A stretch of 64,000 nt of DNA from positions 21,210 through 85,209 of the forward strand of contig JASJXX010000001.1 of NCBI GenBank assembly GCA_030123765.1, written 5' to 3'. The translations under genes and the position numbers were made by a program. The notes under the pieces are model-generated. The model did no database searches, was not told the DNA's origin, and saw only the letters and a list, made by a program, of their open reading frames with translations. The first letter of the stretch is position 1, and each line of letters opens with the position of its first letter. The stretch is from Actinomycetota bacterium (GTDB lineage Bacteria; Actinomycetota; Acidimicrobiia; Spongiisociales; UBA5794). Below are positions 1 to 60,709 of this stretch, one piece after another.

Positions 1-859
1 TCACCTTGAGATCCGTGCCCTTCGAGGCGAAAAGGCACGTGTAGAGTTTGCCTTCAGCCGAGAGACGTAGCCGCGTGCAGTCACCGCAGAACGGCTCGGA
101 CACCGAGGAGATGAATCCCACCTCGCCTCCTCCGTCGCTGAATCGGTATCGCTGCGCGACCTCTCCCCGATACGTCGGGTCGATGGGCTCAAGCTTCCAA
201 CGTTCCGAGATGATCTTGAGCAGCTCAACGGACGGAACAACCTCGTCGAGATTCCACGAGTTGGTGGTTCCCACGTCCATGAATTCGATGAACCGTACGG
301 TGTGGCCCGTCCCCCTGAAGTGTTCGAGGAGTGGCAGAACCTGGTCCTCGTTCCGGTTTCGGCGTACCACGGTGTTGATCTTGACCGGGTCGAGACCGAC
401 GTCGGAAGCAACGTCGATGGCTTCGAGAACTGTGGCCACAGGGACGTCCGTGTCGATCATCTCGCGAAACACGCTGTCATCGAGCGCGTCGAGGCTCACG
501 GTGACCCTGTCGAGCCCTGCCTCCTTCAGGCGTTCGGCTTCCCTCGCAAGGAGTAAGCCGTTCGTGGTCATGGCGAGGTCTTCGAGCTCGGTGAGGGAGG
601 ACAACATCCTGACAAGCCGATACGCCTTGGACCGCAGAAGCGGCTCACCTCCCGTGAGGCGGACCTTGCGGACACCGAGGTCGGTGGCGAGCCTCGTGAT
701 GCGCCGTATCTCGCCGTAACTCAGGATCTCGGCTCGTTCGAGGTAGGTGTGGCCGTCGTAGATCTCGCGAGGCATGCAGTAGCCGCAGCGGAAGCTGCAC
801 CGGTCGGTGACCGAGATTCGGAGGTCGCGCAGCGGTCGGCTGCGAGTGTCTGTGACCAT
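1..859 (-). CDS. moaA: GTP 3',8-cyclase MoaA (radical SAM), C-terminus runs off the window
   Basis: Found by manual translation of the minus strand starting at the ATG at 859. The product reads MVTDTRSRPLRDLRISVTDRCSFRCGYCMPREIY...LTGGEPLL...FIEFMDVGT..., with the CxxxCxxC radical-SAM motif and MoaA-typical blocks. It is absent from the ORF track only because no stop codon falls inside the window. Confidence 0.85.
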   Translation of the reverse strand, partial: MVTDTRSRPLRDLRISVTDRCSFRCGYCMPREIYDGHTYLERAEILSYGEIRRITRLATDLGVRKVRLTGGEPLLRSKAYRLVRMLSSLTELEDLAMTTNGLLLAREAERLKEAGLDRVTVSLDALDDSVFREMIDTDVPVATVLEAIDVASDVGLDPVKINTVVRRNRNEDQVLPLLEHFRGTGHTVRFIEFMDVGTTNSWNLDEVVPSVELLKIISERWKLEPIDPTYRGEVAQRYRFSDGGGEVGFISSVSEPFCGDCTRLRLSAEGKLYTCLFASKGTDLKV

Positions 860-895
860 CTCGTAACAATACTCCCTGATAGATCGTCACACCGC

Positions 896-2023
896 TCAAG
901 TAGCGAGAGCAAGGAACTCGCTGCGGGTACGCGCGTCGGATCGGAACGTCCCGCGCATCGCGCTGGTGACCATGCTGGACTCCTGCTTCTGGACGCCCCG
1001 CATCATCATGCAGAGATGTTTGCCCTCCATCACGACCCCCACGCCGTAGGGGGCGAGAATGTCCGCGAGGGCGTCCGCGACCTGGTTCGTGAGACGCTCT
1101 TGCACCTGCAATCTGCGAGCGAACACGTCCACGACGCGCGCTATCTTCGACAGTCCGATGATCTTCTCCTTGGGCAGGTACCCGATGGTCGCTTTCCCGA
1201 AGAAGGGGAGCATGTGATGCTCGCACATCGAGTAGTACTCGACGTCGCGTACGACGACCATCTCGTTCGCGCCCTCTGCGTCGAAGAGCGCTCCGTTGAC
1301 GACATCCTCAACCGAGGACGTGTATCCGCTGGTGAGGAAGTCCAACGCCTTGGCGACCCGCCGGGGCGTCCGCTGGAGCCCCTCACGGTCGGGATCCTCC
1401 CCGATCTCGATGAGCTGGTCGCGGACGATTGCTTCCAACCTGGGCGCGTACATGCCCTCCACGTCATCAAAGTCAGGGACGGCGCTGGTCGTGTACGGGG
1501 TTGAGAGCCTGATCGCCACGTGGGGAATGACCTGCGAATCTTCGGTGACCAGGGACTCCGCGATCTCGCTCGCGGTCCGCCCCGAAGTGGGGTGCACCCA
1601 CCGGGGAGCAATCTCGGCGATGGGGACGGCGATGTACGCTTCGCTCTCCGCGCCGGGGTCCGGGAGCGACCAGCCGTCGTACTCCTTCGCGAGGACACCG
1701 TAATAGATGACATCGAGGTCTACGGTGCGGGGCGCGCTCGGATCGCTCGAGCGTTGACGTCCGAGATCGTCCTCGATTCCGTGCAACCGCTCGCGTAGCG
1801 CCTCAGGGTCAAGCGTCGTCGTGACAAGAACCGCAGCGTTGTAAAAGTCAGGTGCGCCGGCGGGACCGCCAACAGACTTGCTCTCGTAACATGTGCTCAC
1901 TGTACGTACCGTTATGCCTGGCTGTCGGCGGAGATGCCGGATCGATTCCGGCAGGCACCGTTCCTTGTCCAGATTGGATCCCGCAAGGATGACGACCTCA
2001 ACCGGATCTTGGATAGGTGGCAT
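896..2023 (-). CDS. folK/folE: Bifunctional fusion of HPPK (N-terminal, ~1487-2023) and GTP cyclohydrolase I (C-terminal, ~896-1486)
   Basis: A single 375-aa ORF. The N-terminal half carries the HPPK motifs ([10 protein letters not shown]...[10 protein letters not shown]...). The C-terminal half carries the FolE motifs ([19 protein letters not shown]...[17 protein letters not shown]...RLQVQERLT). No stop codon separates the two halves. Confidence 0.8.
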
Positions 2024-2034
2024 CTTCCCTCCTT

Positions 2035-2400
2035 CTACGTGACCTGGTCAACGCGCGAACGCGTGATGGTAATCCCGACAGATCTAGCGTGGCGGAGAGC
2101 CCCGGGCTTCTCCACTCGCACCTCTACCTTCCCGACGCGCTCGTCGATGAGGCAGATGTCCGCTATCTCCTGAGTGAGGCGCTCGACGAGCATGGGCCTG
2201 CCCTCCTCGATGTGGGCAATGATCGCCTTGGTGATCGTGCGATAGTTGACGGCGTCCGCGATGTCATCTGACACCGCGGCGCGGGTCGTGTCTACCCACA
2301 GCGTCGCGTTGACGCGGATCTCCTGCTCGTTGACTCGCTCGTCAGAGTTGATGCCGATGATCCCTGATACGACGAGGTCGGTGATGTGAATGCGATCCAT
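2035..2400 (-). CDS. folB: Dihydroneopterin aldolase
   Basis: [37 protein letters not shown]...[18 protein letters not shown] is a FolB-like sequence of about 120 aa. The start was moved to the internal Met at 2400 (alternative 2433). The longer ORF in the track is a 5' extension. Confidence 0.8.
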
Positions 2401-2461
2401 GGGTACAACGGTAACTGAAAGATCGGCGTCCATGAACAGAACGACGCGATCCCCCGTGCGC

Positions 2462-3193
2462 CTATACCAGGTGGCCGCCTCCGTCCACACGGATAATCTC
2501 ACCGGTGATGAAGTCGTTCTCCAGCAAGAGAGCAACCGCGTCGGCAACAACCTGTGTGCCACCGACACGCGATAACGGCAGCTCGGCGGCGAGTTGCCCC
2601 GCATACCCATCACCCTCACCTGGCGGAGGCAGTATGACACCGAGAGCGACCGCGTTGACCCTGATGAGCGGTGCGAGGGAGAGAGCCGAGGCCCTGGTCA
2701 GCGTATCGATGCCGCCCTTCGCGAGCACATACGACAGGTGTTTACGATACGGCTTCGCCGTCCTGGCGTCCGTCACGTTCACGATCGCGCCACCGAGGCC
2801 CTCCGGTACCTGCCTTGCGAAAGCCTGAGTGAGGAGGAGCGGCGTCGCGAGCATCAGGTCCTGAGCGGCGCGGAACCCCTCGAGCGTCACATCTTCGATA
2901 GTGTCGAGAGGGAAACCCGACGCATTGTTCACAAGGATGGTCGGCGGTCCCAACGCGGCCGACGCAACATCGACCAGATGTCGGGCGATCTCAGGGTCGG
3001 AGAGGTCAAGAGATCCGATAGCCGCCACACCGCCCGCAGCGTTGATCTCGCGGTGAAGTGACTCAGCCTTGTCGGAGCTTTGGTGGTAGTGGATGAACAC
3101 GGCAGCACCCCGGCGTGCAAGCTCAGCGGAGATCGCACGCCCGACGCGCGCTGCCCCTCCGGTCACGATGGCTGTTCTTCCCGCAAGGTCCAT
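2462..3193 (-). CDS. Short-chain dehydrogenase/reductase, pteridine-reductase (FolM-like) candidate
   Basis: TAIVTGGAARVGRAI Rossmann motif plus an NNAS...YxxxK SDR signature. Sits at the head of the folB / folK::folE cluster. Start set at MDLAGRTAIVTGG (ATG at 3193). Confidence 0.7.
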   Translation of the reverse strand: MDLAGRTAIVTGGAARVGRAISAELARRGAAVFIHYHQSSDKAESLHREINAAGGVAAIGSLDLSDPEIARHLVDVASAALGPPTILVNNASGFPLDTIEDVTLEGFRAAQDLMLATPLLLTQAFARQVPEGLGGAIVNVTDARTAKPYRKHLSYVLAKGGIDTLTRASALSLAPLIRVNAVALGVILPPPGEGDGYAGQLAAELPLSRVGGTQVVADAVALLLENDFITGEIIRVDGGGHLV

Positions 3194-3247
3194 GCAACCA
3201 TCGTAGTGATCAAGCCCGCTGACTCGGATGCGCCTAAGCTCACCAGC

Positions 3248-3826
3248 GTGAGCAAGGAAGACCCGAAGCCGGGACGTTGGATACTCCCGATCGTCATCAC
3301 CGCGTTGATCGGGTTCACCTACGTCTTCGTGAACGCGCTCCCGGCGGCGGATGTCACGCCACCGGCGACCGCGGCGCGCCACGCCACGACGACAACGACG
3401 ACAACGATCCCGCAGACAACGACGTCAACAACGCTACCAATCGAGGTCCGGGCCTTCCTCCAGGAGCTCGACCGCTTCGAGAACATGGCGAGTGATCTTC
3501 AGAGTGAACTTGAAGACGTCAACACGAAGTGGGAGAACAGGGACATTCTCTTTAGCGCGGCAGATACAGGTTTCAGCGAGGTGAGAGAGGACGCTCAGGA
3601 CCTCGCCAACCAGATCGCCGCAGCCTCCGTCCCCGATCCGTTCACCACGGCGTGGCCTGACACCGTCGCGGCTTCCAAGGACCTCGTCGCGCAGCTGCAG
3701 ACAGTCATCGATGGACTCCGCGCACCGGACGACGGGACACTACGGCGGGCCGCCGTTGACAGCTACAGCGCGACGTCGGCAGCGTTCACCAAACAACTCG
3801 ACGTGGTCCGCGGGTTGACTCCGTAG
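3248..3826 (+). CDS. Hypothetical membrane-anchored protein with a poly-Thr linker
   Basis: GTG at 3248 avoids overlap with the SDR gene. One TM helix (WILPIVITALIGFTYVFV), a TTTTTTTIPQTTTSTT linker and a C-terminal domain of unknown type. Confidence 0.4.
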   Translation: MSKEDPKPGRWILPIVITALIGFTYVFVNALPAADVTPPATAARHATTTTTTTIPQTTTSTTLPIEVRAFLQELDRFENMASDLQSELEDVNTKWENRDILFSAADTGFSEVREDAQDLANQIAAASVPDPFTTAWPDTVAASKDLVAQLQTVIDGLRAPDDGTLRRAAVDSYSATSAAFTKQLDVVRGLTP

Positions 3827-3872: not shown

Positions 3873-4874
3873 CTACTCAGCCAGCTTGCTGCACACCGTC
3901 TCGGTGATCTTCGCTGCAACGAGGTAGGGGTCCGCGTTTGCGTTCGGGCGACGATCCTCGATGTAGCCCTTCTGATCCTGGTTGACCATCCACGGGATGC
4001 GCACCGAGGCGCCTCGGTCTGACACGCCGTACGAATACTCGGACCACGGCGCGGTCTCGTGCATGCCTGTCAAGCGGCTCTCGATGCCGGCGCCGTAGAC
4101 CGCTACGTGCTCATCAGGTTTCTCGCCGAGCGCCTCACACGCAGCAATGACTGGGTCCCAGCTCTCGCGCATCGCCTTCGTTGAGAAATTCGTGTGCATG
4201 CCAGCGCCGTTCCAATCGCCCTTGACCGGCTTGGGGTCCAGCGTTGCGGAGATCTCGTAGTCCTCTGCGATGCGATAGAGCAGCCAGCGAGCCAGCCAGA
4301 TCTCGTCGCCGATGGCGACCGTGTCGATCGGACCGATCTGGAACTCCCACTGGCCGATCATCACCTCGGCGTTCGTGCCTGAGATGGCAAGACCGGCCTC
4401 CATGCACGCCCACGTGTGCTCCTCAACGATGTCACGGCCCCATATCTCGTCCGCGCCGATGCCGCAGTAGTAGCCGCCCTGGGGCGCGGGGAAGCCGCCG
4501 ATCGGCCAACCATGCGGACGGCCATCCTTGAAGAACGTGTACTCCTGCTCCATGCCGAACCACGGCTCCTGATCTCCGTACTTCTCGAGGACGGCAACGG
4601 CGATAGCCCGCGTGTTCGTCTCATGCGGAGTCATGTCGACATTGAGCACCTCGCACAGGACAAGGATGTCGTTGCCGCCGCGGATCGGGTCGGGCACGAC
4701 CTTGACGGGGCGGAGCACGCAGTCGGATTTCTCTCCTGGCGCCTGCTCCGTCGATGAGCCGTCAAACGCCCATATCGGCTGCTCGGCGTCATCGGGGATC
4801 ACTTTCGTCTTGGATCGCAGTTTGGCGGTCGGCTTCTGACCATCGATCCAGATGTACTCGGCGCGATATGGCAT
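3873..4874 (-). CDS. glnII: Glutamine synthetase type II (eukaryote-like, 333 aa)
   Basis: MPYRAEYIWIDG...GIGADEIWGRDIVEEH...NGAGMHTNFST; the length and motifs are typical of GSII. Confidence 0.9.
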   Translation of the reverse strand: MPYRAEYIWIDGQKPTAKLRSKTKVIPDDAEQPIWAFDGSSTEQAPGEKSDCVLRPVKVVPDPIRGGNDILVLCEVLNVDMTPHETNTRAIAVAVLEKYGDQEPWFGMEQEYTFFKDGRPHGWPIGGFPAPQGGYYCGIGADEIWGRDIVEEHTWACMEAGLAISGTNAEVMIGQWEFQIGPIDTVAIGDEIWLARWLLYRIAEDYEISATLDPKPVKGDWNGAGMHTNFSTKAMRESWDPVIAACEALGEKPDEHVAVYGAGIESRLTGMHETAPWSEYSYGVSDRGASVRIPWMVNQDQKGYIEDRRPNANADPYLVAAKITETVCSKLAE

Positions 4875-4953
4875 CGTGTCTCGCTTTCAGCGGTGCTCTC
4901 TTCTCACCGGCACGCGGCGTGCCAGCTATCGTCCGACAGGATGGGCGGACGCG

Positions 4954-4991
4954 GTTTCACTGTAGTAAAGGGAGTGTGAACGCTCTGTTAC
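4954..4991. promoter_or_regulatory. Candidate GlnR operator: four pentamers at 11-bp phase (bottom strand GTAAC-n6-TTCAC-n6-TTTAC-n6-GAAAC)
   Basis: Read directly in the 187-bp divergent glnII/glnA2 intergenic region. The actinobacterial GlnR box is gTnAc-n6-GaAAc. glnR lies about 1.4 kb downstream. Confidence 0.5.
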
Positions 4992-5061
4992 ATCACCGAC
5001 CTGAGAGTGACCAGTCGCCCAAGAGTCAATACGATGGCAGCTACCGGACAGTGGAGAATGT

Positions 5062-6390
5062 ATGGAACGCCAGAAGGAGTATGTGCTCTCGACAGTGAAG
5101 GAGCGGGGTATCCGCTTCATCCGCCTGTGGTTCACGGACGTCCAGGGCTTCCTCAAGTCGTTCGCCATCACCCCCGCCGAACTCGAAGTCGCGCTCGATG
5201 AAGGCATGTCGTTCGATGGCAGCTCTATCGACGGGTTCGCCCGCACCCACGAGGCGGACATGCTCGCTAAGCCGGATCCCGCGACGTTCCAGATCCTCCC
5301 GTGGAGAAGTGGCGACGCTGGCGTGGCACGGATGTTCTGCGACATCGTCACCCCCGAGGGGGAGCCTTTCAGCGGTGATCCTCGCAACGTGCTGCGGCGC
5401 AACCTCGAGCGCGCCGCCGAGCTCGGTTACAGCTTCTACGTTGCACCGGAGATCGAGTATTTCTACTTCGAGGATTCGTCCGAAACCCCGAAGGTGCTCG
5501 ACAGGGGCGGCTACTTCGATCTCACGCCACTCGACGTCGCCCAGGAGTACCGGCGTTCCACGATCATGGCCCTTGAGGCGCTCGGCATCCCTGTGACGTT
5601 CAGCCACCATGAAGTCTCGCCATCCCAGCATGAGCTCGACCTTCGACACACGGACGCGCTCACGATGGCGGACAACATCATGACGACACGCCTCACGGTC
5701 AAAGAGGTCGCGATGGAGCACGGGATCTACGCGACGTTCATGCCCAAGCCGCTCGAGAAGTACGACGGGTCGGGCATGCATCTCCACCTCTCCTTGTTCC
5801 AGGGTGACGAGAATGCTTTCCACGACGAGGCGGGTGAGTACGGGTTATCGAAGGTAGCACACGGCTTCATTGCCGGTCTTCTCAAGCATGCTTCCGAGAT
5901 CACTGCCGTGACGAACCAGTGGGTCAACTCCTATAAGCGCCTTGTGAGCGGATTCGACGCCCCGACCTTCGAGACGTGGGCGAGGAACGATCAGAGCGCA
6001 CTCGTGCGCGTGCCCGCAACGAAGAAGGGGAAGATCGATTCGACACGGATCGAATTCCGCTCTCCCGACCCGGCGTGCAACCCTTACCTCGCACTCTCCG
6101 TGATCCTCGCCGCCGGCCTTGCCGGAGTCACGGGAGCCTACGAGCTGGCGCCCGAGGCCGGTTCGGACGTACTGAAGATGTCTACCGAGGAGCGGCGAGA
6201 AGCCGGGATCCGCCACATCCCGCACAGCCTCATCGACGCGATCACCCTCATGGAGGAGTCCGACCTGGTGCGCGATGCGCTCGGTGACCATGTGTTCTCC
6301 TGGTTCCTCAAGAACAAGCGACGTGAGTGGGCACGGTACGAGCAGCACGTGTCAGCGTACGAACTGAGGGAATTCCTACCGGTGTTGTGA
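5062..6390 (+). CDS. glnA2: Glutamine synthetase type I (GlnA2-like, 442 aa)
   Basis: MERQKEYVLSTVKERGIRFIRLWFTDVQGFLKSFAI...; the N-terminus closely matches GlnA2-type GSI, with the full GS catalytic-domain length. Confidence 0.9.
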   Translation: MERQKEYVLSTVKERGIRFIRLWFTDVQGFLKSFAITPAELEVALDEGMSFDGSSIDGFARTHEADMLAKPDPATFQILPWRSGDAGVARMFCDIVTPEGEPFSGDPRNVLRRNLERAAELGYSFYVAPEIEYFYFEDSSETPKVLDRGGYFDLTPLDVAQEYRRSTIMALEALGIPVTFSHHEVSPSQHELDLRHTDALTMADNIMTTRLTVKEVAMEHGIYATFMPKPLEKYDGSGMHLHLSLFQGDENAFHDEAGEYGLSKVAHGFIAGLLKHASEITAVTNQWVNSYKRLVSGFDAPTFETWARNDQSALVRVPATKKGKIDSTRIEFRSPDPACNPYLALSVILAAGLAGVTGAYELAPEAGSDVLKMSTEERREAGIRHIPHSLIDAITLMEESDLVRDALGDHVFSWFLKNKRREWARYEQHVSAYELREFLPVL

Positions 6391-7040
6391 TGTACGTAGC
6401 TCTCTATCCCGAATCGCCGTCCGCCTCTCTGACCGGGGCCCTCATCGGTGCGGGGTACCAACCGGTGCCGATCGCCGACGTTGCCGACGCCGGGCGGAAG
6501 GAGCCCTCCACCGGGTGGGCCGCCGCAGTCGTTGAGCTGGGCGACAACCCGGACATGGCGATCGCCGTTGCGAGAAAGCTGCGTGATGAGTACGACGTCC
6601 CTGTTCTCATCGTCGTCGACCGCACCCTGACGGGAGACCTGGCCGACAAGGACGGCTTCGATGACTTTCTCCTCACCCCCATCGACCAGGTAGAGCTGCG
6701 CATCAGACTGTCGAGGATCGGGGGGAGAGAGCTCGAAGCCACGGACGACCCTGTCCTGCGCTTCGGCGACCTCGAACTCAACACCGCCACTTATCAGGCG
6801 TACCTCGCGGGGAACCCCGTGGACCTCACCTACATGGAGTACGAGCTGCTGCGATTCTTCGTTGAGCACCCGAACCGAGTGTGGAGTCGCGAGCAGATCC
6901 TCTCCAAGGTCTGGGGCTACGACTACTTCGGAGGCTCACGCACCGTAGACGTCCACGTCAGGCGCCTCCGAGCCAAGCTGAGTGAGGAACGCGCCTCGTG
7001 GATCACGACCGTGCGGTCCGTCGGCTACCGCTTCGGATAG
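6390..7040 (+). CDS. glnR: OmpR-family winged-helix regulator, GlnR-like (atypical receiver domain)
   Basis: C-terminal YEYELLRFFVEHPNRVWSREQIL...TVDVHVRRLRAKL...VRSVGYRF OmpR/PhoB DNA-binding domain. ATG at 6390 overlaps the glnA2 stop (TGATG). Confidence 0.75.
   Translation: MYVALYPESPSASLTGALIGAGYQPVPIADVADAGRKEPSTGWAAAVVELGDNPDMAIAVARKLRDEYDVPVLIVVDRTLTGDLADKDGFDDFLLTPIDQVELRIRLSRIGGRELEATDDPVLRFGDLELNTATYQAYLAGNPVDLTYMEYELLRFFVEHPNRVWSREQILSKVWGYDYFGGSRTVDVHVRRLRAKLSEERASWITTVRSVGYRFG
6985..7037. repeat. Direct repeat copy 1 (~53 bp), covering the last 16 codons and stop of glnR
   Basis: tcgtggatcacgaccgtgcggtccgtcggctaccgcttcggatagcggaccc recurs at 7968-8020. Confidence 0.75.
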
Positions 7041-22558: not shown

Positions 22559-22643
22559 GACAGGAACGTAGTACGCATCGCGTACCACGGGGTACAAGAC
22601 GCTTCGGTCCAGCGAAGGGCTGCGGGTGTTTATCCTGCTCCGA

Positions 22644-23987
22644 ATGGACCTGCGTGATCTGCCCTCCGTAACGACCCTCGCCGACGACATCGCGAGAGGA
22701 TCCACTCTCCCTCGACCTGTCATCACCCAGGTGTGCCAGGAAGCGATCGACCAGACGCGCGAAGCGATTCAATCCGGCAGGGATGCCGATGCCGGAGCTC
22801 TGGCGGCCGCAGCACTCGCCGACATCGAGGCAGCACGTCCGCGCTCGGTTATCAACGCAACGGGTGTGCTCCTCCATACGAACCTCGGCAGGGCCCGTGT
22901 GAGCCACTCCGTCGCCGCCGCGTCCTCGACGATCCAGTCAGCGGCGAGCAACGTCGAGATCGACCTACGCACCGGCCGAAGATCTAGCCGCTCCACGTAT
23001 CTGCGAGTCCTGCTCCCTGTCGTCACCGGGTCCGAGGACGGATTCGCGGTGAACAACAACGCCGGTGCTCTATTGCTCGCGCTCGCTTCCATCCCCGGTC
23101 AAGCCAGACAAGTAGCAGTATCACGAGGCGAGCTCATCGAGATCGGTGGCTCTTTCCGCCTCCCCGATCTCATGGCTGCAAGTGGCGTACAACTCGTCGA
23201 AGTCGGCACTACGAATCGGACGCGCCTCTCCGACTACGCGGCGGTCGCCGCTTCGGTCGATGCGCTACTGAAGGTCCACCCCTCCAATTACCGGGTCGAG
23301 GGTTTCCAGGAGGAAGCGAGCTACGCCGATCTCGCCGAGCTCGCCCACTCCCACGGCATCCCGTTCCTCGCGGACGTGGGAAGCGGCCTCATCGACGAAG
23401 CCGCTCCGTGGCTAGCAGACTCCGACCGCCGCTGGCTGGCGGGCGAGCCGGGCGTCAAACAGACGATTGCAGATGGTGCCGACCTCGTCCTGTTCTCCGG
23501 CGACAAGCTGCTTGGTGGCCCCCAAGCAGGCATCATCGTCGGCACACACGACGCTGTTGAGCGGGCCGCGCGCCACCCGATCGCACGAGCCGTGCGGCTC
23601 GACGGCTCGCGTATCGCTGCTGTCGCGGCGACGCTCGAGAGCTACGCGCATCATCGCGTTGACAACCTCCCGTTCTGGGCGATGGCCGGCGCGAGCGTCA
23701 CCGACATCAATGAGCGGGCACACGAGGTGATCCGCGGTCTGTCTCCGGGCATACGCATCGTCGACGGGCGCTCCATCCCCGGTGCGGGATCGGTCCCCGG
23801 CGCGACCATCCCCACGAAACTGATCGAGCTACCCGGTCCAGCGGACGGTATGTGGTCGGGGTTGGCGGCCTGCGAACCACCCGTCATCGCGAGCCGTCGC
23901 GAGGCGCACACACTTCTCGACCTGCGATCGGTGCTCCCGGATGACGACGCGAACGTCGCCGCCGCTCTCCGAAGAGTTTTGAGCTGA
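22644..23987 (+). CDS. selA: L-seryl-tRNA(Sec) selenium transferase
   Basis: DLRDLPSV...VINATGVLLHTNLGRA...SGDKLLGGPQAGIIVG...; the length and motifs are typical of SelA. Confidence 0.85.
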   Translation: MDLRDLPSVTTLADDIARGSTLPRPVITQVCQEAIDQTREAIQSGRDADAGALAAAALADIEAARPRSVINATGVLLHTNLGRARVSHSVAAASSTIQSAASNVEIDLRTGRRSSRSTYLRVLLPVVTGSEDGFAVNNNAGALLLALASIPGQARQVAVSRGELIEIGGSFRLPDLMAASGVQLVEVGTTNRTRLSDYAAVAASVDALLKVHPSNYRVEGFQEEASYADLAELAHSHGIPFLADVGSGLIDEAAPWLADSDRRWLAGEPGVKQTIADGADLVLFSGDKLLGGPQAGIIVGTHDAVERAARHPIARAVRLDGSRIAAVAATLESYAHHRVDNLPFWAMAGASVTDINERAHEVIRGLSPGIRIVDGRSIPGAGSVPGATIPTKLIELPGPADGMWSGLAACEPPVIASRREAHTLLDLRSVLPDDDANVAAALRRVLS

Positions 23988-23988
23988 C

Positions 23989-25758
23989 GTGCCGATCGTT
24001 GGCACGGCAGGTCACGTCGACCACGGCAAGTCAACGCTCGTTCAGGCACTCACGGGCCGAGACCCGGACCGGTGGGCGGAGGAGAAGGAGCGCGGCCTGA
24101 CGATCGACCTCGGTTTCGCCTGGACCGAGATCGAAGGCATCGACGTCGGGTTCGTGGATGTGCCGGGACATGAGCGCTTCATCAAGAACATGCTCGCCGG
24201 TGTCGGAGGCATCGACTGTGCCCTCCTCGTAGTTGCGGCCGACGGTGGATGGATGCCCCAGACAGAGGAGCACGCGGCGGTACTCGACCTGCTCGACACC
24301 AGGGCCGGCGTCATCGCTCTCACCCGAATCGACCTCGTCGATGACGACACGCGAGAACTCGCAGCGCTCGAGATCATGGAGGAGACCGCCGGAACGGTGC
24401 TCGCGGACTGGCCGATTGTGCCCGTGTCCCCCATCACGGGGGAGGGTCTTGATGAGTTGCGCGCGCAGCTGGCTACAGCCCTCGGCCGTCACAAGCCGCT
24501 GGTGGCCGGACCGCTGCGCATGTGGATCGACCGGTCCTTCACGATCAGCGGCGCGGGGGTCGTCGTCACGGGAACCGTCTCAGGCGGTCGGATCGCCATC
24601 GGAGACGAGGTTGCGATCCTCCCAGGAGGCCGCTCTGACCGCGTCAGGGGCCTCCACCATCACGACCATGCGGTCGATGAAGCCAGCGCGGGATCACGAA
24701 CGGCGATCAACCTCCAGTCTTCCTCGCTCACCGATGTGCCTCGTGGGACCTTGATCTGCACACCGGGGACGATCGCGGAGACCGGGCGCATCCTCACGAC
24801 CATCGAGCCGGCACGCGGCTTCGATGAAATTCCTCCACGCGGCGCCTTCCACGTCCACCTCGGAACGGCACACATTCCGGTCCAGATCAGGCAGCTTCAC
24901 GACTCCAACGCGTACATGCTCACCCTCTCAGACGTGCTCCCCGTAGCCATCGGTGATCGATTCATCCTACGCGACACCGGCCGGAGAGCAGTCGTCGGCG
25001 GCGGTCGGGTACTCGACCCACGACCCGCGGATCGAGTCTCGATGGAGACGATCGAACTTCTCGCAGGATCCCTCGACCGTCCAGTGCGCGACGTGGCGGA
25101 TGCCCTCCTCACCGTGCGCGGGATCACCCGCGCAGACGACCTGGCAGAGGCGGCAGGGGGAGTGGCTCCGTCCTGCGGAACGCGCGCGGGACCACTCATC
25201 ATCTCCGAAGCAGCGATCGCCGACATCGCTCTGCGCATTACCGACATCGTCGGGAGATATCACGACGCGCATCCGCTTCGCCCAGGAATGGCAAAGCCAG
25301 AAGTCGCCACCCGGATCGGTTTGGACCTCGCTGTGATCGAGGCCACGGTTCGAGAGTCGGAGAGCCTTCGCGAGTCGAACGGGTCCATTCATCTCGTCGA
25401 CTTCGTCAACGCTCTGACACCCCAGCAGGAGTCAACATGGGAGAGGGTACGATCCGACCTCGAAGCATCGTACGACGTACCGAGGATGGGCGTCATCGAC
25501 CTGGACTCTGAGCTGCTTCATGCGCTGGTACGGCGCGGTGACCTCATCCAGGTAGCGCCCGACCTCGTCTTCACCCAACGTCAGGTCAACAGCCTCACCC
25601 AACGTCTCGGCGAACTCCCTGAGGGCTTCACGGTCTCGCAGTTCAAGGAGGCGTTCGGCATGACCAGGCGCCAGGCGATACCCACACTCGAGTGGCTCGA
25701 CAAGTCGGGGTGGACCCGAAGGTCAGGAGACGGCAGGTCCCTCAGACGACGGACGTAG
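23989..25758 (+). CDS. selB: Selenocysteine-specific elongation factor
   Basis: IVGTAGHVDHGKSTLV...DVPGHERFIKNM...; an EF-Tu-like GTPase with a long C-terminal winged-helix extension (589 aa). It is separated from the selA stop by 1 nt. Confidence 0.85.
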   Translation: MPIVGTAGHVDHGKSTLVQALTGRDPDRWAEEKERGLTIDLGFAWTEIEGIDVGFVDVPGHERFIKNMLAGVGGIDCALLVVAADGGWMPQTEEHAAVLDLLDTRAGVIALTRIDLVDDDTRELAALEIMEETAGTVLADWPIVPVSPITGEGLDELRAQLATALGRHKPLVAGPLRMWIDRSFTISGAGVVVTGTVSGGRIAIGDEVAILPGGRSDRVRGLHHHDHAVDEASAGSRTAINLQSSSLTDVPRGTLICTPGTIAETGRILTTIEPARGFDEIPPRGAFHVHLGTAHIPVQIRQLHDSNAYMLTLSDVLPVAIGDRFILRDTGRRAVVGGGRVLDPRPADRVSMETIELLAGSLDRPVRDVADALLTVRGITRADDLAEAAGGVAPSCGTRAGPLIISEAAIADIALRITDIVGRYHDAHPLRPGMAKPEVATRIGLDLAVIEATVRESESLRESNGSIHLVDFVNALTPQQESTWERVRSDLEASYDVPRMGVIDLDSELLHALVRRGDLIQVAPDLVFTQRQVNSLTQRLGELPEGFTVSQFKEAFGMTRRQAIPTLEWLDKSGWTRRSGDGRSLRRRT

Positions 25759-27878: not shown

Positions 27879-27930
27879 CCGCAAGGCAGGAACCGATAGA
27901 GGAGCTATACACTCCCCGCCATCGGGACGT

Positions 27931-28007
27931 GGCGCAGCTTGGTAGCGCGCATCGTTCGGGACGATGAGGCCGTCGGTTCGAATCCGACCGTCCCGACCAA
28001 GCCCCTC
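27931..28007 (+). tRNA. tRNA-Pro (anticodon CGG)
   Basis: Folded by hand. Acceptor CGGGACG/CGTCCCG, D-stem GCGC/GCGC, anticodon stem CATCG/CGATG with loop TTCGGGA, T-arm GTCGG-TTCGAAT-CCGAC, discriminator A and an encoded CCA. Confidence 0.85.
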
Positions 28008-54232: not shown

Positions 54233-55075
54233 GTGGGCCGACGTTTCGTCATCCGCGATGCCTCGCGAGTTGGAACCGACATCGTCCGGCTCGTCGTTGA
54301 GGCGCCACGAGTCGCTCGGCACGCCCGGCCGGGGCAGTTCGTGATCGTCCGTTCCGGTGAACACGGTGAGCGTATCCCCCTCACTAGTCGCAGCACCGAC
54401 GCTGCCGAGGGAACGATCACCCTCATCGTCCAGGCAGCTCGCAGCACACCACGAACAAGATCAATCAGAAGGGCGCAGGAGACCACTTCAGGGATGTGCT
54501 GGGACCGCTCGGCACTCCATCCCACATCGAACGATTCGGTACCTGCGTCCTCGTCGCCGGAGGAATCGGAGCGGCGATCGTTCTCCCCGTAGCCGAGGCT
54601 CTCGCGGAGGCGGGGTACGTTGCCATCGGCATCGTGGGGGTCCGCGACAGTGAACACCTGGTCCTCCTCGACGAGATGCGTGCCGCGTGCAACGAGGTGA
54701 TCGTGACGACGGACGACGGGTCTGAGGGCCTGCACGGCCTTGTGACCGACGCCCTCGTAACTCTCATGGCGGAGACCGCCATCGACTATGTGTTTACCGC
54801 AGGACCGATCCCAATGATGCAAGCTGTCGCCGAGCGGACGCGTCAAGACGCCATCGCCACCGTTGCGAGCCTGAACCCTCTCATGGTCGACGGCACCGGC
54901 ATGTGCGGCGGGTGCAGAGTGACCATCAACGGTGCATCGAAGTTCGCTTGTATCGACGGCCCCGAAATCGATGCACACGATGTCAACTTCGCGTTGCTCG
55001 GTACGCGAACCGGGGCGTACCTCTCCTTTGAATCCTGCAAGCTCGATGAGGCGGTCGAGGCTCTGGATGCCTGAA
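54233..55075 (+). pseudogene. Frameshifted nfnA/sudB/pyrK-like ferredoxin-NADP reductase small subunit
   Basis: The N-terminal part (RFVIRD...PGQFVIVR...ERIPLT...GTITLIVQ) is in one frame. The remainder (GDHFRDVLGPLGTPSHI...GGIGAAIV...GTGMCGGCRV 2Fe-2S motif) is in a different frame from about 54440. Confidence 0.6.
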
Positions 55076-55557
55076 CGCACGAAGCGCGAGCGCATGAAGA
55101 TGGAGCGCACCGCCGTTCCGAGACAGAGATGCCAGCTCGGAGCGAGGAGATCGCCCACGCCCTGGAAGAGGGCGTCCACATCCGCTTCCTCATCGCCCCA
55201 ACATCATTCAACGGCGCAGAGGGGTGGCTCTCGAGTGTCACGATCCAGAAGATGCAGCTCGGAGAGCCCGACGCCGACGGGCGAGCGCGGCCGGATCCGA
55301 TCCAGGGCGCGTTCGAGACAATCGACGCAGACGTAGTCGTTGTCGCCATCGGCAACGCGCCGAATCCTCTCCTCACGAAGTCCACGCCAGCCCTCACAAC
55401 GAGCCCGTGGGGCACGATCGAGATCAACGAGGAGACAGGCCTCACATCGATCCCCGGCGTGTTCGCCGGGGGCGACATCACAACCGGCAGCGCAACCGAG
55501 GTCCTTGCTCTCGCTGCGGGACGCCGCGCCGCGGCTGCTATCGATGACTATCTCTGA
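55067..55557 (+). pseudogene. Remnant of a GltD/NfnB/SudA-like large subunit with an internal deletion
   Basis: A GltD-type N-terminus MPERTKRERMKME... at 55067 overlaps the upstream stop (ATGCCTGA). It then jumps, in a different frame, to the C-terminal ~145 residues (...RRSETEMPARSEEIAHALEEGV...MQLGEPDADGRARP...GVFAGGD...IDDYL). Confidence 0.55.
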
Positions 55558-58784: not shown

Positions 58785-58957
58785 CAGTATGGCCACAGTC
58801 GTCGTTAGCGTCTCCGCCGACAGAGCGCTCATCAAGAGCGGTTGAGGGACGGGCCCTGTGAAACCGCAGCAACCGGTGACATCGCCATCCGGCGACGAGC
58901 ACGGGGCGGAGGGAAGCTCGTCTCGTGGCAGGATGGCTTCGGGACCGGAGCGGTGCG

Positions 58958-59695
58958 ATGATGCTCGAACTCGCCTCCGTCTCCCTGCGCTATCCGAACG
59001 GCCACCACGCCATCGAGGGAATCAACCTCTCTGTGCCCGCGAGGTGCATCGTGGTCATGATCGGGGTGAGCGGATGCGGCAAGAGCACACTGCTGCGTCT
59101 GGTGGCCGGCCTTGAGCAGCCAACGTCGGGGACGGTCTCGGTCGCCGGTGAGATCGTCGACCGTCCTACCCGCCATGTCGGTTTCGTATTCCAGGAACCC
59201 CGGCTCATGCCCTGGCTGACAGTCTCGGAGAACGTCACCTTCGGGTTGGCGGACCGCCCGAGGAAGGAGCGGGATGCCGTCGCAGCCCGCGTCCTCGACC
59301 GGATCGGGCTCGCGGACTTCGGGCGTGCTCTCCCCAAGCAGCTCTCGGGGGGTATGGCCCAACGCGTCGCCCTTGCTCGTGCGCTCGTCGGCGACCCGGA
59401 GGTGCTGCTGCTCGACGAGCCATTCAATGCGCTTGACGCGCTCACCCGATCGGACCTTCAACAACATCTGCTCGACCTGTGGGCCGTCGACCACCGAACG
59501 ATGCTGCTCGTCACTCACGATATCGACGAGGCGCTCAGGCTCGCCGACACCATCGTGGTTCTCGCCGGTCAGCCGGGCCGTATCGTCGACCAGGTCGACA
59601 TCGACGACCCCCGACCGCGGGATCTCACATCTGAGAGATTGGCATCGATTCGTCGCTGGGTAATCGCCGGGCTATCGGTGACCCCCAAGACCTGA
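58958..59695 (+). CDS. ABC transporter ATP-binding protein (NitT/TauT-type), orphan
   Basis: Walker A GVSGCGKST, LSGGMAQRVALARAL. No permease gene is adjacent. Confidence 0.8.
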   Translation: MMLELASVSLRYPNGHHAIEGINLSVPARCIVVMIGVSGCGKSTLLRLVAGLEQPTSGTVSVAGEIVDRPTRHVGFVFQEPRLMPWLTVSENVTFGLADRPRKERDAVAARVLDRIGLADFGRALPKQLSGGMAQRVALARALVGDPEVLLLDEPFNALDALTRSDLQQHLLDLWAVDHRTMLLVTHDIDEALRLADTIVVLAGQPGRIVDQVDIDDPRPRDLTSERLASIRRWVIAGLSVTPKT

Positions 59696-59764: not shown

Positions 59765-60709
59765 ATGTTGAGAGTCACTGCCGCTGCGGCAGCGTTGGCA
59801 GTCTTTGCATCTGCGTGCACCTCGTCTGCTGCCGCGCCCACGACCACCGTGGAAGCGGCGACAGCCACCCTCACGCCGCTCACCACGCTTGTGACGCTCA
59901 CCCCGGTGACTCCGACCACCTCGACTACGGGGCCGCCATCCACGACAACGACCCGTCCCGTCCCCGAGAACGAGTGCGAGGTCGCGTCCGTCGCCGGTGT
60001 TGACGGTTACGCCCAGGGATGCACCGTGCTTGGTATCGAAGTGCTCGCCGCAGCCGGGGTCGACCCTGAGGCGATCCGTCAGCTGGCCGATCGGGTGCAC
60101 GGCATGCTCGTGAACCGACCAGAGTACGCGGCAGCGATCGCGAGCCATCCGATCGGTGTGCGGGTGATAGGCGCGGATCAACGCATCACCGACCTTCCCG
60201 AGTTCACGCGCATCTACTTCCATCATCCCGGCACCGACTGGCACAGACTTGGACGTTCATTCCCTGGCACCGAGCTCATTCCGTACGCTGCAGGGGCTGC
60301 GGAGAACCTGCTGTGCAGCGACATAGACCGCTTCGAGGGTGAGGACAACTTCCTTCGTGCGTTCGCCATCACGATCAGACGCTACGCGATGGCGGCGGTC
60401 GACACCGCTACCTCAAGGGCGATCGAGCAGGCCTACAGCATCGCCATCGCCGAAGGCAAGTGGACGAACACGCTCGCGGAGATCAACTCCGAGCAGTACT
60501 GGGCGGAAGGGGTCCAGAGCTTCTTCGACGCGAACCTCCAGGACGACGCCCAGGAACGCAAGCCGATCTCCTCCCACAACCACGTCAACACGAGGGAGGA
60601 GCTACGCACGTACGACCGGGCACTATGGGAGATCGCAGTGTCCGTGTTCGGCGACGCGGAGTGGCGCCCAGGATGCGGTGCTCTCATCTCATCGGAAGCA
60701 ACTTCGTAG
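59765..60709 (+). CDS. Hypothetical secreted lipoprotein with a Thr/Pro-rich linker
   Basis: Lipobox ASAC and a T/P-rich linker. I recognise no C-terminal domain. Confidence 0.45.
   Translation: MLRVTAAAAALAVFASACTSSAAAPTTTVEAATATLTPLTTLVTLTPVTPTTSTTGPPSTTTTRPVPENECEVASVAGVDGYAQGCTVLGIEVLAAAGVDPEAIRQLADRVHGMLVNRPEYAAAIASHPIGVRVIGADQRITDLPEFTRIYFHHPGTDWHRLGRSFPGTELIPYAAGAAENLLCSDIDRFEGEDNFLRAFAITIRRYAMAAVDTATSRAIEQAYSIAIAEGKWTNTLAEINSEQYWAEGVQSFFDANLQDDAQERKPISSHNHVNTREELRTYDRALWEIAVSVFGDAEWRPGCGALISSEATS

Follow-up and report, generated by a model that had tools for sequence, protein, structure and literature searches.

The joining of an HPPK domain to GTP cyclohydrolase I (GCH-I) in one protein is known from Lactococcus lactis, where the folKE fusion lies in a folKEPQC cluster (PMC1971073). 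Tetrahydromonapterin is the product of FolX together with FolM, and folM is frequently found in a cluster with folE (PMC5587915, PMC5041015), including in documented folM-folE operons (PMC5587915). The FolE-FolX-FolM route has been reported for E. coli, Pseudomonas and Burkholderia (Pribat et al. 2010, as cited in PMC5041015 and PMC5587915); as described there, it contains no protein of the HPPK family, and no enzyme has been assigned to its dephosphorylation step. FolX itself has been thought to be restricted to Gammaproteobacteria (PMC3405516). Here we analyse a 64,000-nucleotide stretch of an Actinomycetota bacterium (contig JASJXX010000001.1, positions 21,210 to 85,209), hereafter the window, whose minus strand carries at 1-3193 four co-oriented genes, for a short-chain dehydrogenase/reductase (SDR), a FolB-family protein, an HPPK::GCH-I fusion and MoaA. 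We read these genes, with a probability of about 0.5, as an operon-like pterin module distinct from the canonical actinobacterial folate operon, in which the FolB-family protein is FolX-like and the HPPK half has a remodelled active site.

The features of the cluster are the following:

2462-3193, minus strand: SDR of PTR1/FolM type, 243 amino acids, heading the cluster (list of open reading frames, ORFs, and sequence reading; Pfam adh_short / adh_short_C2)
2035-2400, minus strand: FolB-family gene of the FolX-like branch, 121 amino acids (Pfam FolB, 101.8 bits)
2026-2033, minus strand: Shine-Dalgarno-like AAGGAGGG, in the 11-bp spacer between the FolB-family stop and the fusion ATG (sequence reading)
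896-2023, minus strand: HPPK::GCH-I fusion, 375 amino acids, stop codon at 896-898 (single ORF, both Pfam domains)
1529-2002, minus strand: HPPK-family domain of the Asp115 ('PDP') clade, amino acids 8-165 of the fusion (residue alignment, neighbour-joining tree)
1448-1528, minus strand: inter-domain linker, amino acids 166-192 (model confidence as pLDDT, family conservation)
899-1447, minus strand: GCH-I (FolE) domain, amino acids 193-375 (residue alignment, Foldseek)
1-859, minus strand: moaA (GTP 3',8-cyclase), 5' part, starting at 859 and cut by the window edge (TIGR02666, radical-SAM motif)

Read 5' to 3' along the cluster, the intergenic gaps are 61, 11 and 36 bp. The order SDR-folB-folK::folE followed by moaA, and the coordinates given for it in the original prediction, match the ORF list and our own reading of the sequence. 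The ATG of the fused ORF follows GAAGGAGG, and the FolB-family start at 2400 agrees with the MELDRI... starts of its homologues. Between positions 1 and 5200 of the window we found no riboswitch or other Rfam element, including the tetrahydrofolate (THF), THF-II and molybdenum cofactor (Moco) types, and neither a sigma-70-like promoter nor an intrinsic terminator.

The fused gene is a single ORF of 375 amino acids spanning FolK and FolE, as had been claimed, and the junction peptide quoted with that claim is present in its translation. Pfam places HPPK (PF01288) at amino acids 12-140 with 87.9 bits (cut-off 25.7) and GTP_cyclohydroI (PF01227) at amino acids 197-373 with 251 bits (cut-off 27). 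The NCBIfam models folK TIGR01498 (86.5 against a cut-off of 54.1) and folE TIGR00063 (245.9 against 181.6) are also passed, so the alignment to HPPK and FolE profiles that had been proposed as a check recovers both domains. The original prediction had also allowed for a read-through artefact, that is, a stop or frameshift between folK and folE that was missed in sequencing or assembly. Such an error would be in line with the arrangement in Luminiphilus, Planctomycetota and Hydrogenedentota, three other phyla in which folK and folE are adjacent yet separate ORFs in different frames. The fused gene is kept, however, across many independent assemblies: a protein search found both Pfam domains in all of at least 120 clusters drawn from four independent sources (JGI, ENA, NCBI and Logan assemblies), with 66-100% identity and lengths of 345-399 amino acids, and 114 of the 120 clusters among the matches listed measure 370-376 amino acids. 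Moreover, the fusion occurs in 14 loci, its linker is conserved as protein, and its third-position GC content (0.79) is within the range of the adjoining genes. These data exclude the artefact for practical purposes, and we assign it a negligible probability.

Among genomes scanned at one per species, twelve metagenome-assembled genomes (MAGs) have the full-length fused gene, at 61-69% identity; two further loci (L097 and L098) bring the total to the 14 just mentioned. The twelve MAGs are mostly labelled Acidimicrobiia or Acidimicrobiaceae, some at a broader rank, and one (L007) was binned as Gemmatimonadales. Since most of the fusion-bearing MAGs carry an Acidimicrobiia label, the window is placed in that class. 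In plasmids, tblastn with the HPPK domain alone gave only homologues below 37% identity, and the whole fusion recovered clusters of Vibrio and Enterococcus.

The fusion had been presented as unusual, yet it is of a known kind, given the Lactococcus folKE (PMC1971073) and an example in Enterococcus faecium. The latter lies on the conjugative Inc18 plasmid NZ_CP034948.1 (L095; 94997-99772 of the record), in the order folT-folB-folKE-(FolC-like)-folP-NUDIX; folate biosynthesis is therefore mobile in enterococci, since this near-complete folate cluster is carried by a conjugative plasmid. The window protein shares with FolKE of Lactobacillales the N-terminal HPPK, the C-terminal GCH-I and a single polypeptide of about 350-375 amino acids, and a FolB-family gene precedes the fusion in E. 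faecium as well. Nevertheless, the overall identity of the two proteins is only 32%. The HPPK half of E. faecium has His115, Arg121 and Phe123 (VPHPEAFNRLF), whereas the window has Asp122 and Glu128 at the first two of these positions, and the window cluster lacks the folP, NUDIX and FolC-like ligase genes with which the E. faecium FolKE is clustered. The Acidimicrobiia fusion is best read, from these sequences, as independent of the Lactococcus/Enterococcus folKE fusion and as joining genes that are adjacent but separate elsewhere.

The HPPK half keeps one part of the active site and has changed another. The residues equivalent to E. coli Asn55, Glu77, Arg82, Arg84, Arg92, Asp95 and Asp97 are present as N62, E84, R89, R91, R99, D102 and D104, which include the Mg2+ ligands (Asp95/Asp97), the catalytic arginines (Arg82/Arg92) and the pterin ligand (Asn55). 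Most of these Mg2+, arginine and pterin residues are invariant in the fused family, and D104 is at least 90% conserved. By contrast, His115 is replaced by Asp122, Tyr116 by Pro123, Arg121 by Glu128, Phe123 by Tyr130 and Trp89 by Ser, so that the His115 and Arg121 of the PH...R.F motif are Asp122 and Glu128 in the window. Of 46 fused proteins, 44 have Asp or Glu at position 122, and the residues common at 128 do not include Arg. In the E. coli ternary complex of Blaszczyk et al. (2000), the gamma-phosphate of ATP is reportedly held by His115, Tyr116 and Arg121. A docking study of the Staphylococcus aureus enzyme has Arg121 touching a gamma-phosphate oxygen (PMC5879566). The original prediction had named a true bifunctional enzyme as one of its options and had pointed to a domain without catalytic residues as the observation that would speak against it. 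The loss of His115 and Arg121 is of that kind, but the Mg2+ ligands, Arg82/Arg92 and Asn55 remain, and the GCH-I half has all of its catalytic and zinc residues; the proposal thus stands for GCH-I and is qualified for HPPK.

The Asp at position 115 is not a peculiarity of this protein. When the HPPK domain was searched exhaustively with HMMER against 1.84 billion representative proteins, about half of the best 150 matches had Asp at that position. In a neighbour-joining tree, 69 of the 71 Asp115 sequences fell into one clade, which contained a single His115 sequence; from these sequences, the Asp115 clade of the HPPK family is near-monophyletic. Arg121 is kept in 32% of the clade as against 93% of the His115 set. 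The clade also has His in place of Phe123 in 65% of its members, Arg in place of Gln74 in 80%, and Asp or Glu in place of Arg117; at the Gln74 position the window has His and not the clade's Arg. Across the clade, however, E77, R82, R84, R92, D95, D97 and N55 are conserved at 93-100%. Because the residues for Mg2+/phosphate and for pterin are conserved in this way, selection has kept that chemistry while the gamma-phosphate pocket was remodelled. Such clade-wide conservation argues against a dead HPPK domain, and the Asp115 change, as judged from the alignments, is the mark of a clade and not of a degenerate copy.

Fusions to GCH-I and to DUF488, as well as to FolB, were seen among the HPPK-domain matches. 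A profile built from 52 Asp115-type sequences found members in Caldilinea, Anaerolineales, Aggregatilinea and Geobacteraceae. Among the 120 matches listed for this profile, FolB was the only fusion partner and there was no fusion of HPPK to dihydropteroate synthase (DHPS). Most members of the clade are stand-alone or fused to FolB, rather than to GCH-I.

In the GCH-I half all zinc and catalytic positions are kept. The zinc ligands of E. coli FolE are Cys110, His113 and Cys181, and its catalytic residues are His112, His179, Gln151, Glu152 and Ser135. The equivalences are C110=C267, H112=H269, H113=H270, S135=S292, K136=K293 and R139=R296, and further Q151=Q308, E152=E309, H179=H336, C181=C338 and R185=R342. 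The best Foldseek match of the domain is the GCH-I of Thermus thermophilus (1WM9, 64% identity), and the fold of the monomer model resembles the decameric T. thermophilus and human enzymes. On this evidence the domain is fully canonical, and it should make 7,8-dihydroneopterin triphosphate from GTP because all the catalytic and zinc residues are present. A monomer model made with AlphaFold from 46 family members has two confidently folded domains with a low-confidence segment between them (amino acids 174-191, pLDDT below 50). Y177 of this linker is nevertheless invariant in the fused family, conservation reaches 90% or more at P176, R180, D184, F185 and D186, and the conserved stretch reads STPYTTxA..DFDDV. 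A linker that is conserved yet predicted to be disordered suggests a docking or regulatory role.

The neighbouring 'folB' is closer to FolX than its label implies. Its product is 42% identical to E. coli FolX (86 bits) and 34% identical to E. coli FolB (70 bits). Against solved structures it scores 87.5 bits with 4AEY and 77.8 bits with 1B9L, both FolX, compared with 68.6 and 62.6 bits for the aldolases 3O1K and 2O90 and 53.9 bits for that of Mycobacterium tuberculosis, 1NBU. At each of the 16 related loci tested, too, FolX of E. coli gives the FolB-family partner a higher score than FolB does. The NCBIfam models give a mixed picture: folB TIGR00525 is passed (81 bits, cut-off 72.15), whereas the FolX model NF008418 is not reached (110.3 bits, cut-off 152). 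The window protein is nearer to FolX than to any solved aldolase; because the folB cut-off is passed and that of FolX is not, its function is not readable from the sequence.

A FolM-like reductase had been predicted at the head of the cluster. The SDR carries TGGAARVG, which fits the TGX3RXG signature that PTR1/FolM proteins have instead of the TGX3GXG of other SDRs (PMC1971073), together with YVLAK (YxxxK). Of 14 reductase sequences checked, including that of the window, 13 have TGX3RXG. Among NCBIfam models the SDR scores best with PRK09134 (210.8 bits) and the pteridine reductase PRK09135 (177.8 bits, cut-off 288); the dihydromonapterin reductase PRK06483 gives 100.3 bits (cut-off 249). No equivalog cut-off is reached, that of PRK09134 included, and the identity to E. 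coli FolM is 26%. The motif thus bears out the predicted type, and the scores fall short of a FolM or pteridine-reductase assignment.

These features recall the FolE-FolX-FolM route, in that one cluster encodes GCH-I, a protein of the FolX branch and a reductase with TGX3RXG. Two differences from it are that the window proteins lie below the FolX and FolM equivalog cut-offs of NCBIfam, and that no pterin-4a dehydratase or hydroxylase was seen in the window, hydroxylases not having been searched for. The locus also resembles that of FolK2, the second, folB-clustered folK exemplified by ACIAD2407 of Acinetobacter baylyi (PMC4814558; noted earlier in PMC1971073), in that an HPPK homologue with altered active-site residues adjoins a FolB-family gene. 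FolK2 of A. baylyi is non-essential and fails to complement an E. coli folK deletion, and Acinetobacter was treated as an exception in that study (PMC4814558). Different residues have been lost in the two proteins: A. baylyi FolK2 lacks R92 and F123, whereas the window protein keeps R92 and has Tyr at 123, and lacks H115 and R121. Another parallel is PD0677 of Xylella fastidiosa, a folM-like gene clustered with pterin-branch genes (PMC1971073, Figure 5D), which likewise places a TGX3RXG reductase with folE, folB and folK-type genes. The folM-like genes of such clusters were predicted to act in pterin, and not folate, metabolism; that work describes no fusion and no analysis of the HPPK active site, and its taxa are Proteobacteria (PMC1971073).

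The same gene set recurs outside Acidimicrobiia. The order SDR-FolB-folK-folE is found in Luminiphilus (Gammaproteobacteria), a Planctomycetota MAG and a Hydrogenedentota MAG, and all three of their separate FolKs have Asp at the His115 position. As the order is the same with folK and folE separate in three other phyla, the cluster predates the fusion. Other arrangements are:

L089, Caldilinea: FolB-HPPK-FolE2-SDR
L091, metagenome contig: FolB-HPPK-FolE-RibD_C
L092, Geobacteraceae contig: Pterin_4a-Pyr_redox-FolE-SDR-FolB-HPPK
L088, Aggregatilinea lenta: Pterin_4a-FolE-SDR, with FolB-HPPK some 6 kb away
L090, metagenome contig: FolB::HPPK fusion adjoining FolE2
L087 and L093, metagenome contigs: FolB-HPPK pair alone

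In other phyla the core pair of a FolX-like protein and an Asp115-type HPPK is usually accompanied by a GCH-I (FolE or FolE2) and a reductase. Genomes with the module include GCA_002418265.1 (Acidimicrobiia), the CAWDDT01 MAG, and those of A. lenta (GCA_003569045.1) and Caldilinea (GCA_026003635.1). The non-homologous swaps, FolE for FolE2 and the SDR for a RibD_C reductase, argue for a functional module of four activities. Pterin-4a-carbinolamine dehydratase, which stands near the module in two of these loci (L088 and L092), serves tetrahydropterin cofactors and not folate. A further copy is carried by the 519-kb plasmid pTHAF190c_b of Vibrio sp. THAF190c (L094; 44132-46475 of the record), annotated by PGAP as folK-folX-folE-folM beside polyhydroxyalkanoate (PHA) synthesis genes. 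In the FolK encoded there, His115 is replaced by Arg and Arg121 by Tyr, and the collected HPPK sequences that match it best are mostly members of the Asp115 clade. Similar clusters lie on plasmids of V. fortis and V. pelagius. Ten loci, mostly of Gemmatimonadota, have a stand-alone FolE that is 62-66% identical to the GCH-I of the window (L029, L035, L037, L039, L044, L045, L048, which is a Longimicrobium MAG, L064, L069 and L071). An SDR directly follows each of these FolE genes and is only 27-40% identical to that of the window; by sequence, this may be a different pairing of GCH-I and reductase.

The linkage to moaA is specific to Acidimicrobiia, as the module in other phyla is without this gene. 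The moaA gene starts 36 bp past the fusion stop on the same strand, immediately downstream as the original prediction had it, and passes TIGR02666 (336.7 bits, cut-off 284.05) with CSFRCGYC fitting CxxxCxxC; its C-terminal end is beyond the window. By score the product is a canonical MoaA. The order FolB-family gene, fusion, moaA is found in 11 of the twelve MAGs of the scan, the contig of the remaining one (L009) being too short to show moaA; moaA thus follows the fusion in L001-L008, L010-L012, L097 and L098. No other Moco genes follow moaA in these loci. One possible reason for the linkage is that two pterin pathways, both consuming GTP, are expressed together. Upstream of the FolB-family gene, the SDR is present in five MAGs of the scan and in L009.

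Absence of DHPS from the cluster had been part of the original prediction, and neither E. coli nor Arthrobacter FolP gave a significant tblastn match in the 64-kb window. The same holds for 88 related loci, and no folP lies within 10 kb at any of the module loci examined. E. coli FolC had no tblastn match in the window either. The canonical operon of Arthrobacter sp. ERGS1:01 (L096), ftsH-folE-folP-folB-folK, likewise groups GCH-I, FolB-family and HPPK-family proteins, but as separate genes, in another order, with folP, and with a FolK of the His115/Arg121 type (LPHPRAAERAF). Arthrobacter FolB has no tblastn match to the FolB-family gene of the window at E<=1. The cluster is no rearranged folE-folP-folB-folK operon. 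We had considered adjacency to folP as a strong discriminator between folate and other clusters and dropped it, because control HPPK genes of the His115 type are solitary and E. coli folK is distant from folP.

We favour a separate reduced-pterin module because the FolB-family partner is FolX-like, the reductase is of the PTR1/FolM type and the active site of HPPK has been remodelled, and because the module has pterin-4a dehydratase neighbours in two loci and a Vibrio plasmid copy. A further reason is that folK2 of A. baylyi, itself clustered with folB, did not complement the E. coli deletion (PMC4814558). In such a module, the GCH-I half would convert GTP to 7,8-dihydroneopterin triphosphate, and the FolX-like protein may epimerise or cleave the neopterin side chain. 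The HPPK-like domain, which the conserved linker of about 27 residues would tether to every subunit of the GCH-I oligomer, may act on the pterin so formed in a phosphoryl or pyrophosphoryl step that depends on Mg2+, and the PTR1/FolM-type reductase would take the 7,8-dihydropterin to the tetrahydro level. The likeliest end product would be an unconjugated pterin in reduced form, akin to tetrahydromonapterin or hydroxymethylpterin, and not dihydropteroate. The suggestion in the original prediction of a pterin pathway not committed to folate is thereby strengthened, through the FolX-like 'folB', the PTR1/FolM motif and the recurrence of the module without folP, although this support is indirect.

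Several observations weigh against a separate module. The HPPK-like and FolB-family proteins pass the NCBIfam folK and folB equivalog cut-offs, and those of FolX and of FolM or pteridine reductase are not reached. The likeness to FolX may reflect ancestry and not epimerase function; the catalytic residues are common to FolX and FolB, and the window protein has the KPGA of FolB where FolX has K(P/L)HA. Every residue needed for Mg2+-dependent pyrophosphoryl transfer is conserved, and the Arg74 of the clade (His in the window) could compensate for the lost Arg121. Two control HPPK genes of the His115 type are also solitary, with no folP nearby, and E. coli folK is far from folP, which makes the missing folP weak evidence. 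Pterin-4a dehydratase, FolE2 and RibD_C were looked for in the window and the Acidimicrobiia loci without success, aromatic amino-acid hydroxylases not having been searched for. Three MAGs, two labelled Acidimicrobiia (L008 and L010) and the one binned as Gemmatimonadales (L007), have the FolB-family gene, fusion and moaA without an upstream SDR, and therefore the reductase is not an obligatory neighbour. To our knowledge, a DHPS-type enzyme is the only established fate of hydroxymethyl-dihydropterin diphosphate.

The main alternative is a folate pterin branch made up of FolE, a FolB aldolase of unusual lineage and a functional HPPK variant, with the FolM-type SDR as dihydrofolate reductase (DHFR) and with folP and folC elsewhere in the genome. 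We hold this to be a serious possibility, though on balance a doubtful one. In its favour are, besides the folK and folB cut-offs, the often distant folP of canonical HPPK genes and the single known fate of the diphosphate, the clear purifying selection on the Mg2+, arginine and pterin ligands and the FolB::HPPK fusions within the clade, as in canonical folate pathways. The Geobacteraceae copy adjoins the THF-dependent glycine cleavage genes, and the RibD_C protein that replaces the reductase in L091 belongs to Pfam01872, whose members resemble DHFRs of the FolA type (PMC1971073). FolM can reduce dihydrofolate and is the only DHFR candidate in some genomes (PMC1971073), and in 20-25% of genomes the single folK, necessarily active, is clustered with folB (PMC4814558). 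A folate branch fits less well with the replacement of His115 and Arg121, the reported gamma-phosphate contacts, by Asp and Glu. It also fits poorly with a partner that is consistently FolX-like and that actinobacterial FolB fails to detect, with the two loci that have the dehydratase nearby, and with the lack of any HPPK-DHPS fusion among the 120 matches listed for the clade profile. The Vibrionaceae host of the plasmid copy presumably has chromosomal folK, folB and folP, which also counts against it. The HPPK-like half could instead be a non-enzymatic pterin sensor that gives feedback control of GCH-I, as GFRP does for the mammalian enzyme. The loss of gamma-phosphate ligands with N55 and the aromatics at 53 and 123 of the pterin pocket kept, the conserved linker to GCH-I, and the inactivity of A. 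baylyi FolK2 in complementation (PMC4814558) are in line with a sensor. We nevertheless consider it quite improbable, as D95, D97, E77, R82, R84 and R92, which serve Mg2+/phosphate chemistry and are dispensable for pterin binding, are 93-100% conserved, and as most members of the clade are stand-alone or FolB-fused and not joined to GCH-I. A more speculative idea, unlikely but less so than the sensor, is that the Asp115-type proteins are not HPPKs and use their pterin, Mg2+ and arginine residues for another phosphate reaction on a GTP-derived pterin. A candidate would be a Mg2+-dependent reaction that strips (pyro)phosphate off the triphosphate of dihydroneopterin or dihydromonapterin, the very step for which the FolE-FolX-FolM route lacks an assigned enzyme. 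If this were true, the four genes would represent four consecutive steps, the fusion would be Rosetta-stone evidence, and many unexplained second folK copies, which are present in about 14% of bacterial genomes (PMC4814558), would be accounted for.

Beyond the pterin cluster, an ORF divergent from the SDR (3080-3826, plus strand) has hydrophobic, putatively membrane-spanning, and Thr-rich stretches. It has no Pfam or NCBIfam match and is kept at the same position, with 34-60% identity, in L002, L003, L004, L006 and L012; in L008 and L010 the opposite-strand flanking gene encodes a large repetitive protein or a histidine kinase. Also adjoining the cluster are a GSII-type glutamine synthetase (3873-4874, minus strand), glnA (5062-6390, plus strand) and an ORF (6327-7040, plus strand) whose homologues carry a Trans_reg_C domain; this glnII/glnA/regulator neighbourhood (3873-7040) is kept in L004, L012, L097 and L098. 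Elsewhere in the window, an S-adenosylmethionine (SAM) riboswitch (RF00162; 58826-58901, plus strand; 46.9 bits, gathering score 44.4) lies directly upstream of ORFs for an ATPase of an ATP-binding cassette (ABC) transporter (58925-59695) and a lipoprotein (59765-60709), which together are probably a methionine uptake operon. At 22626-25758 (plus strand), selA (Pfam SelA, 342 bits) is followed by a selB-like GTPase gene; ARAGORN found no tRNA-Sec in the whole 64 kb, the only tRNA being tRNA-Pro at 27923-27999. Three short consecutive ORFs at 54233-55557 (plus strand), one with a DHODB_Fe-S_bind domain and one of 142 amino acids whose match to Pyr_redox_2 is confined to positions 190-282, together resemble a split or truncated pair of GltD- or sulfide-dehydrogenase-like genes, or a frameshift.

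The fusion alone is of modest interest, since folKE fusions are known. As far as we have searched the literature, an HPPK of the Asp115 clade fused to GCH-I within a FolX-like/PTR1-like module has not been described, and the clade is sharply set apart by a handful of substitutions in an active site that has been studied very thoroughly. In the source names of the matches, the fused gene is called "GTP cyclohydrolase I" or folK, and its neighbour folB. Such annotation would credit uncultured Acidimicrobiia, Chloroflexota and Planctomycetota with the standard pterin branch of folate synthesis in metabolic reconstructions. If a separate reduced-pterin pathway is the true reading, calls of folate prototrophy for these lineages would need to be re-checked, and the long-noted duplication of folK would gain a concrete and testable candidate function.

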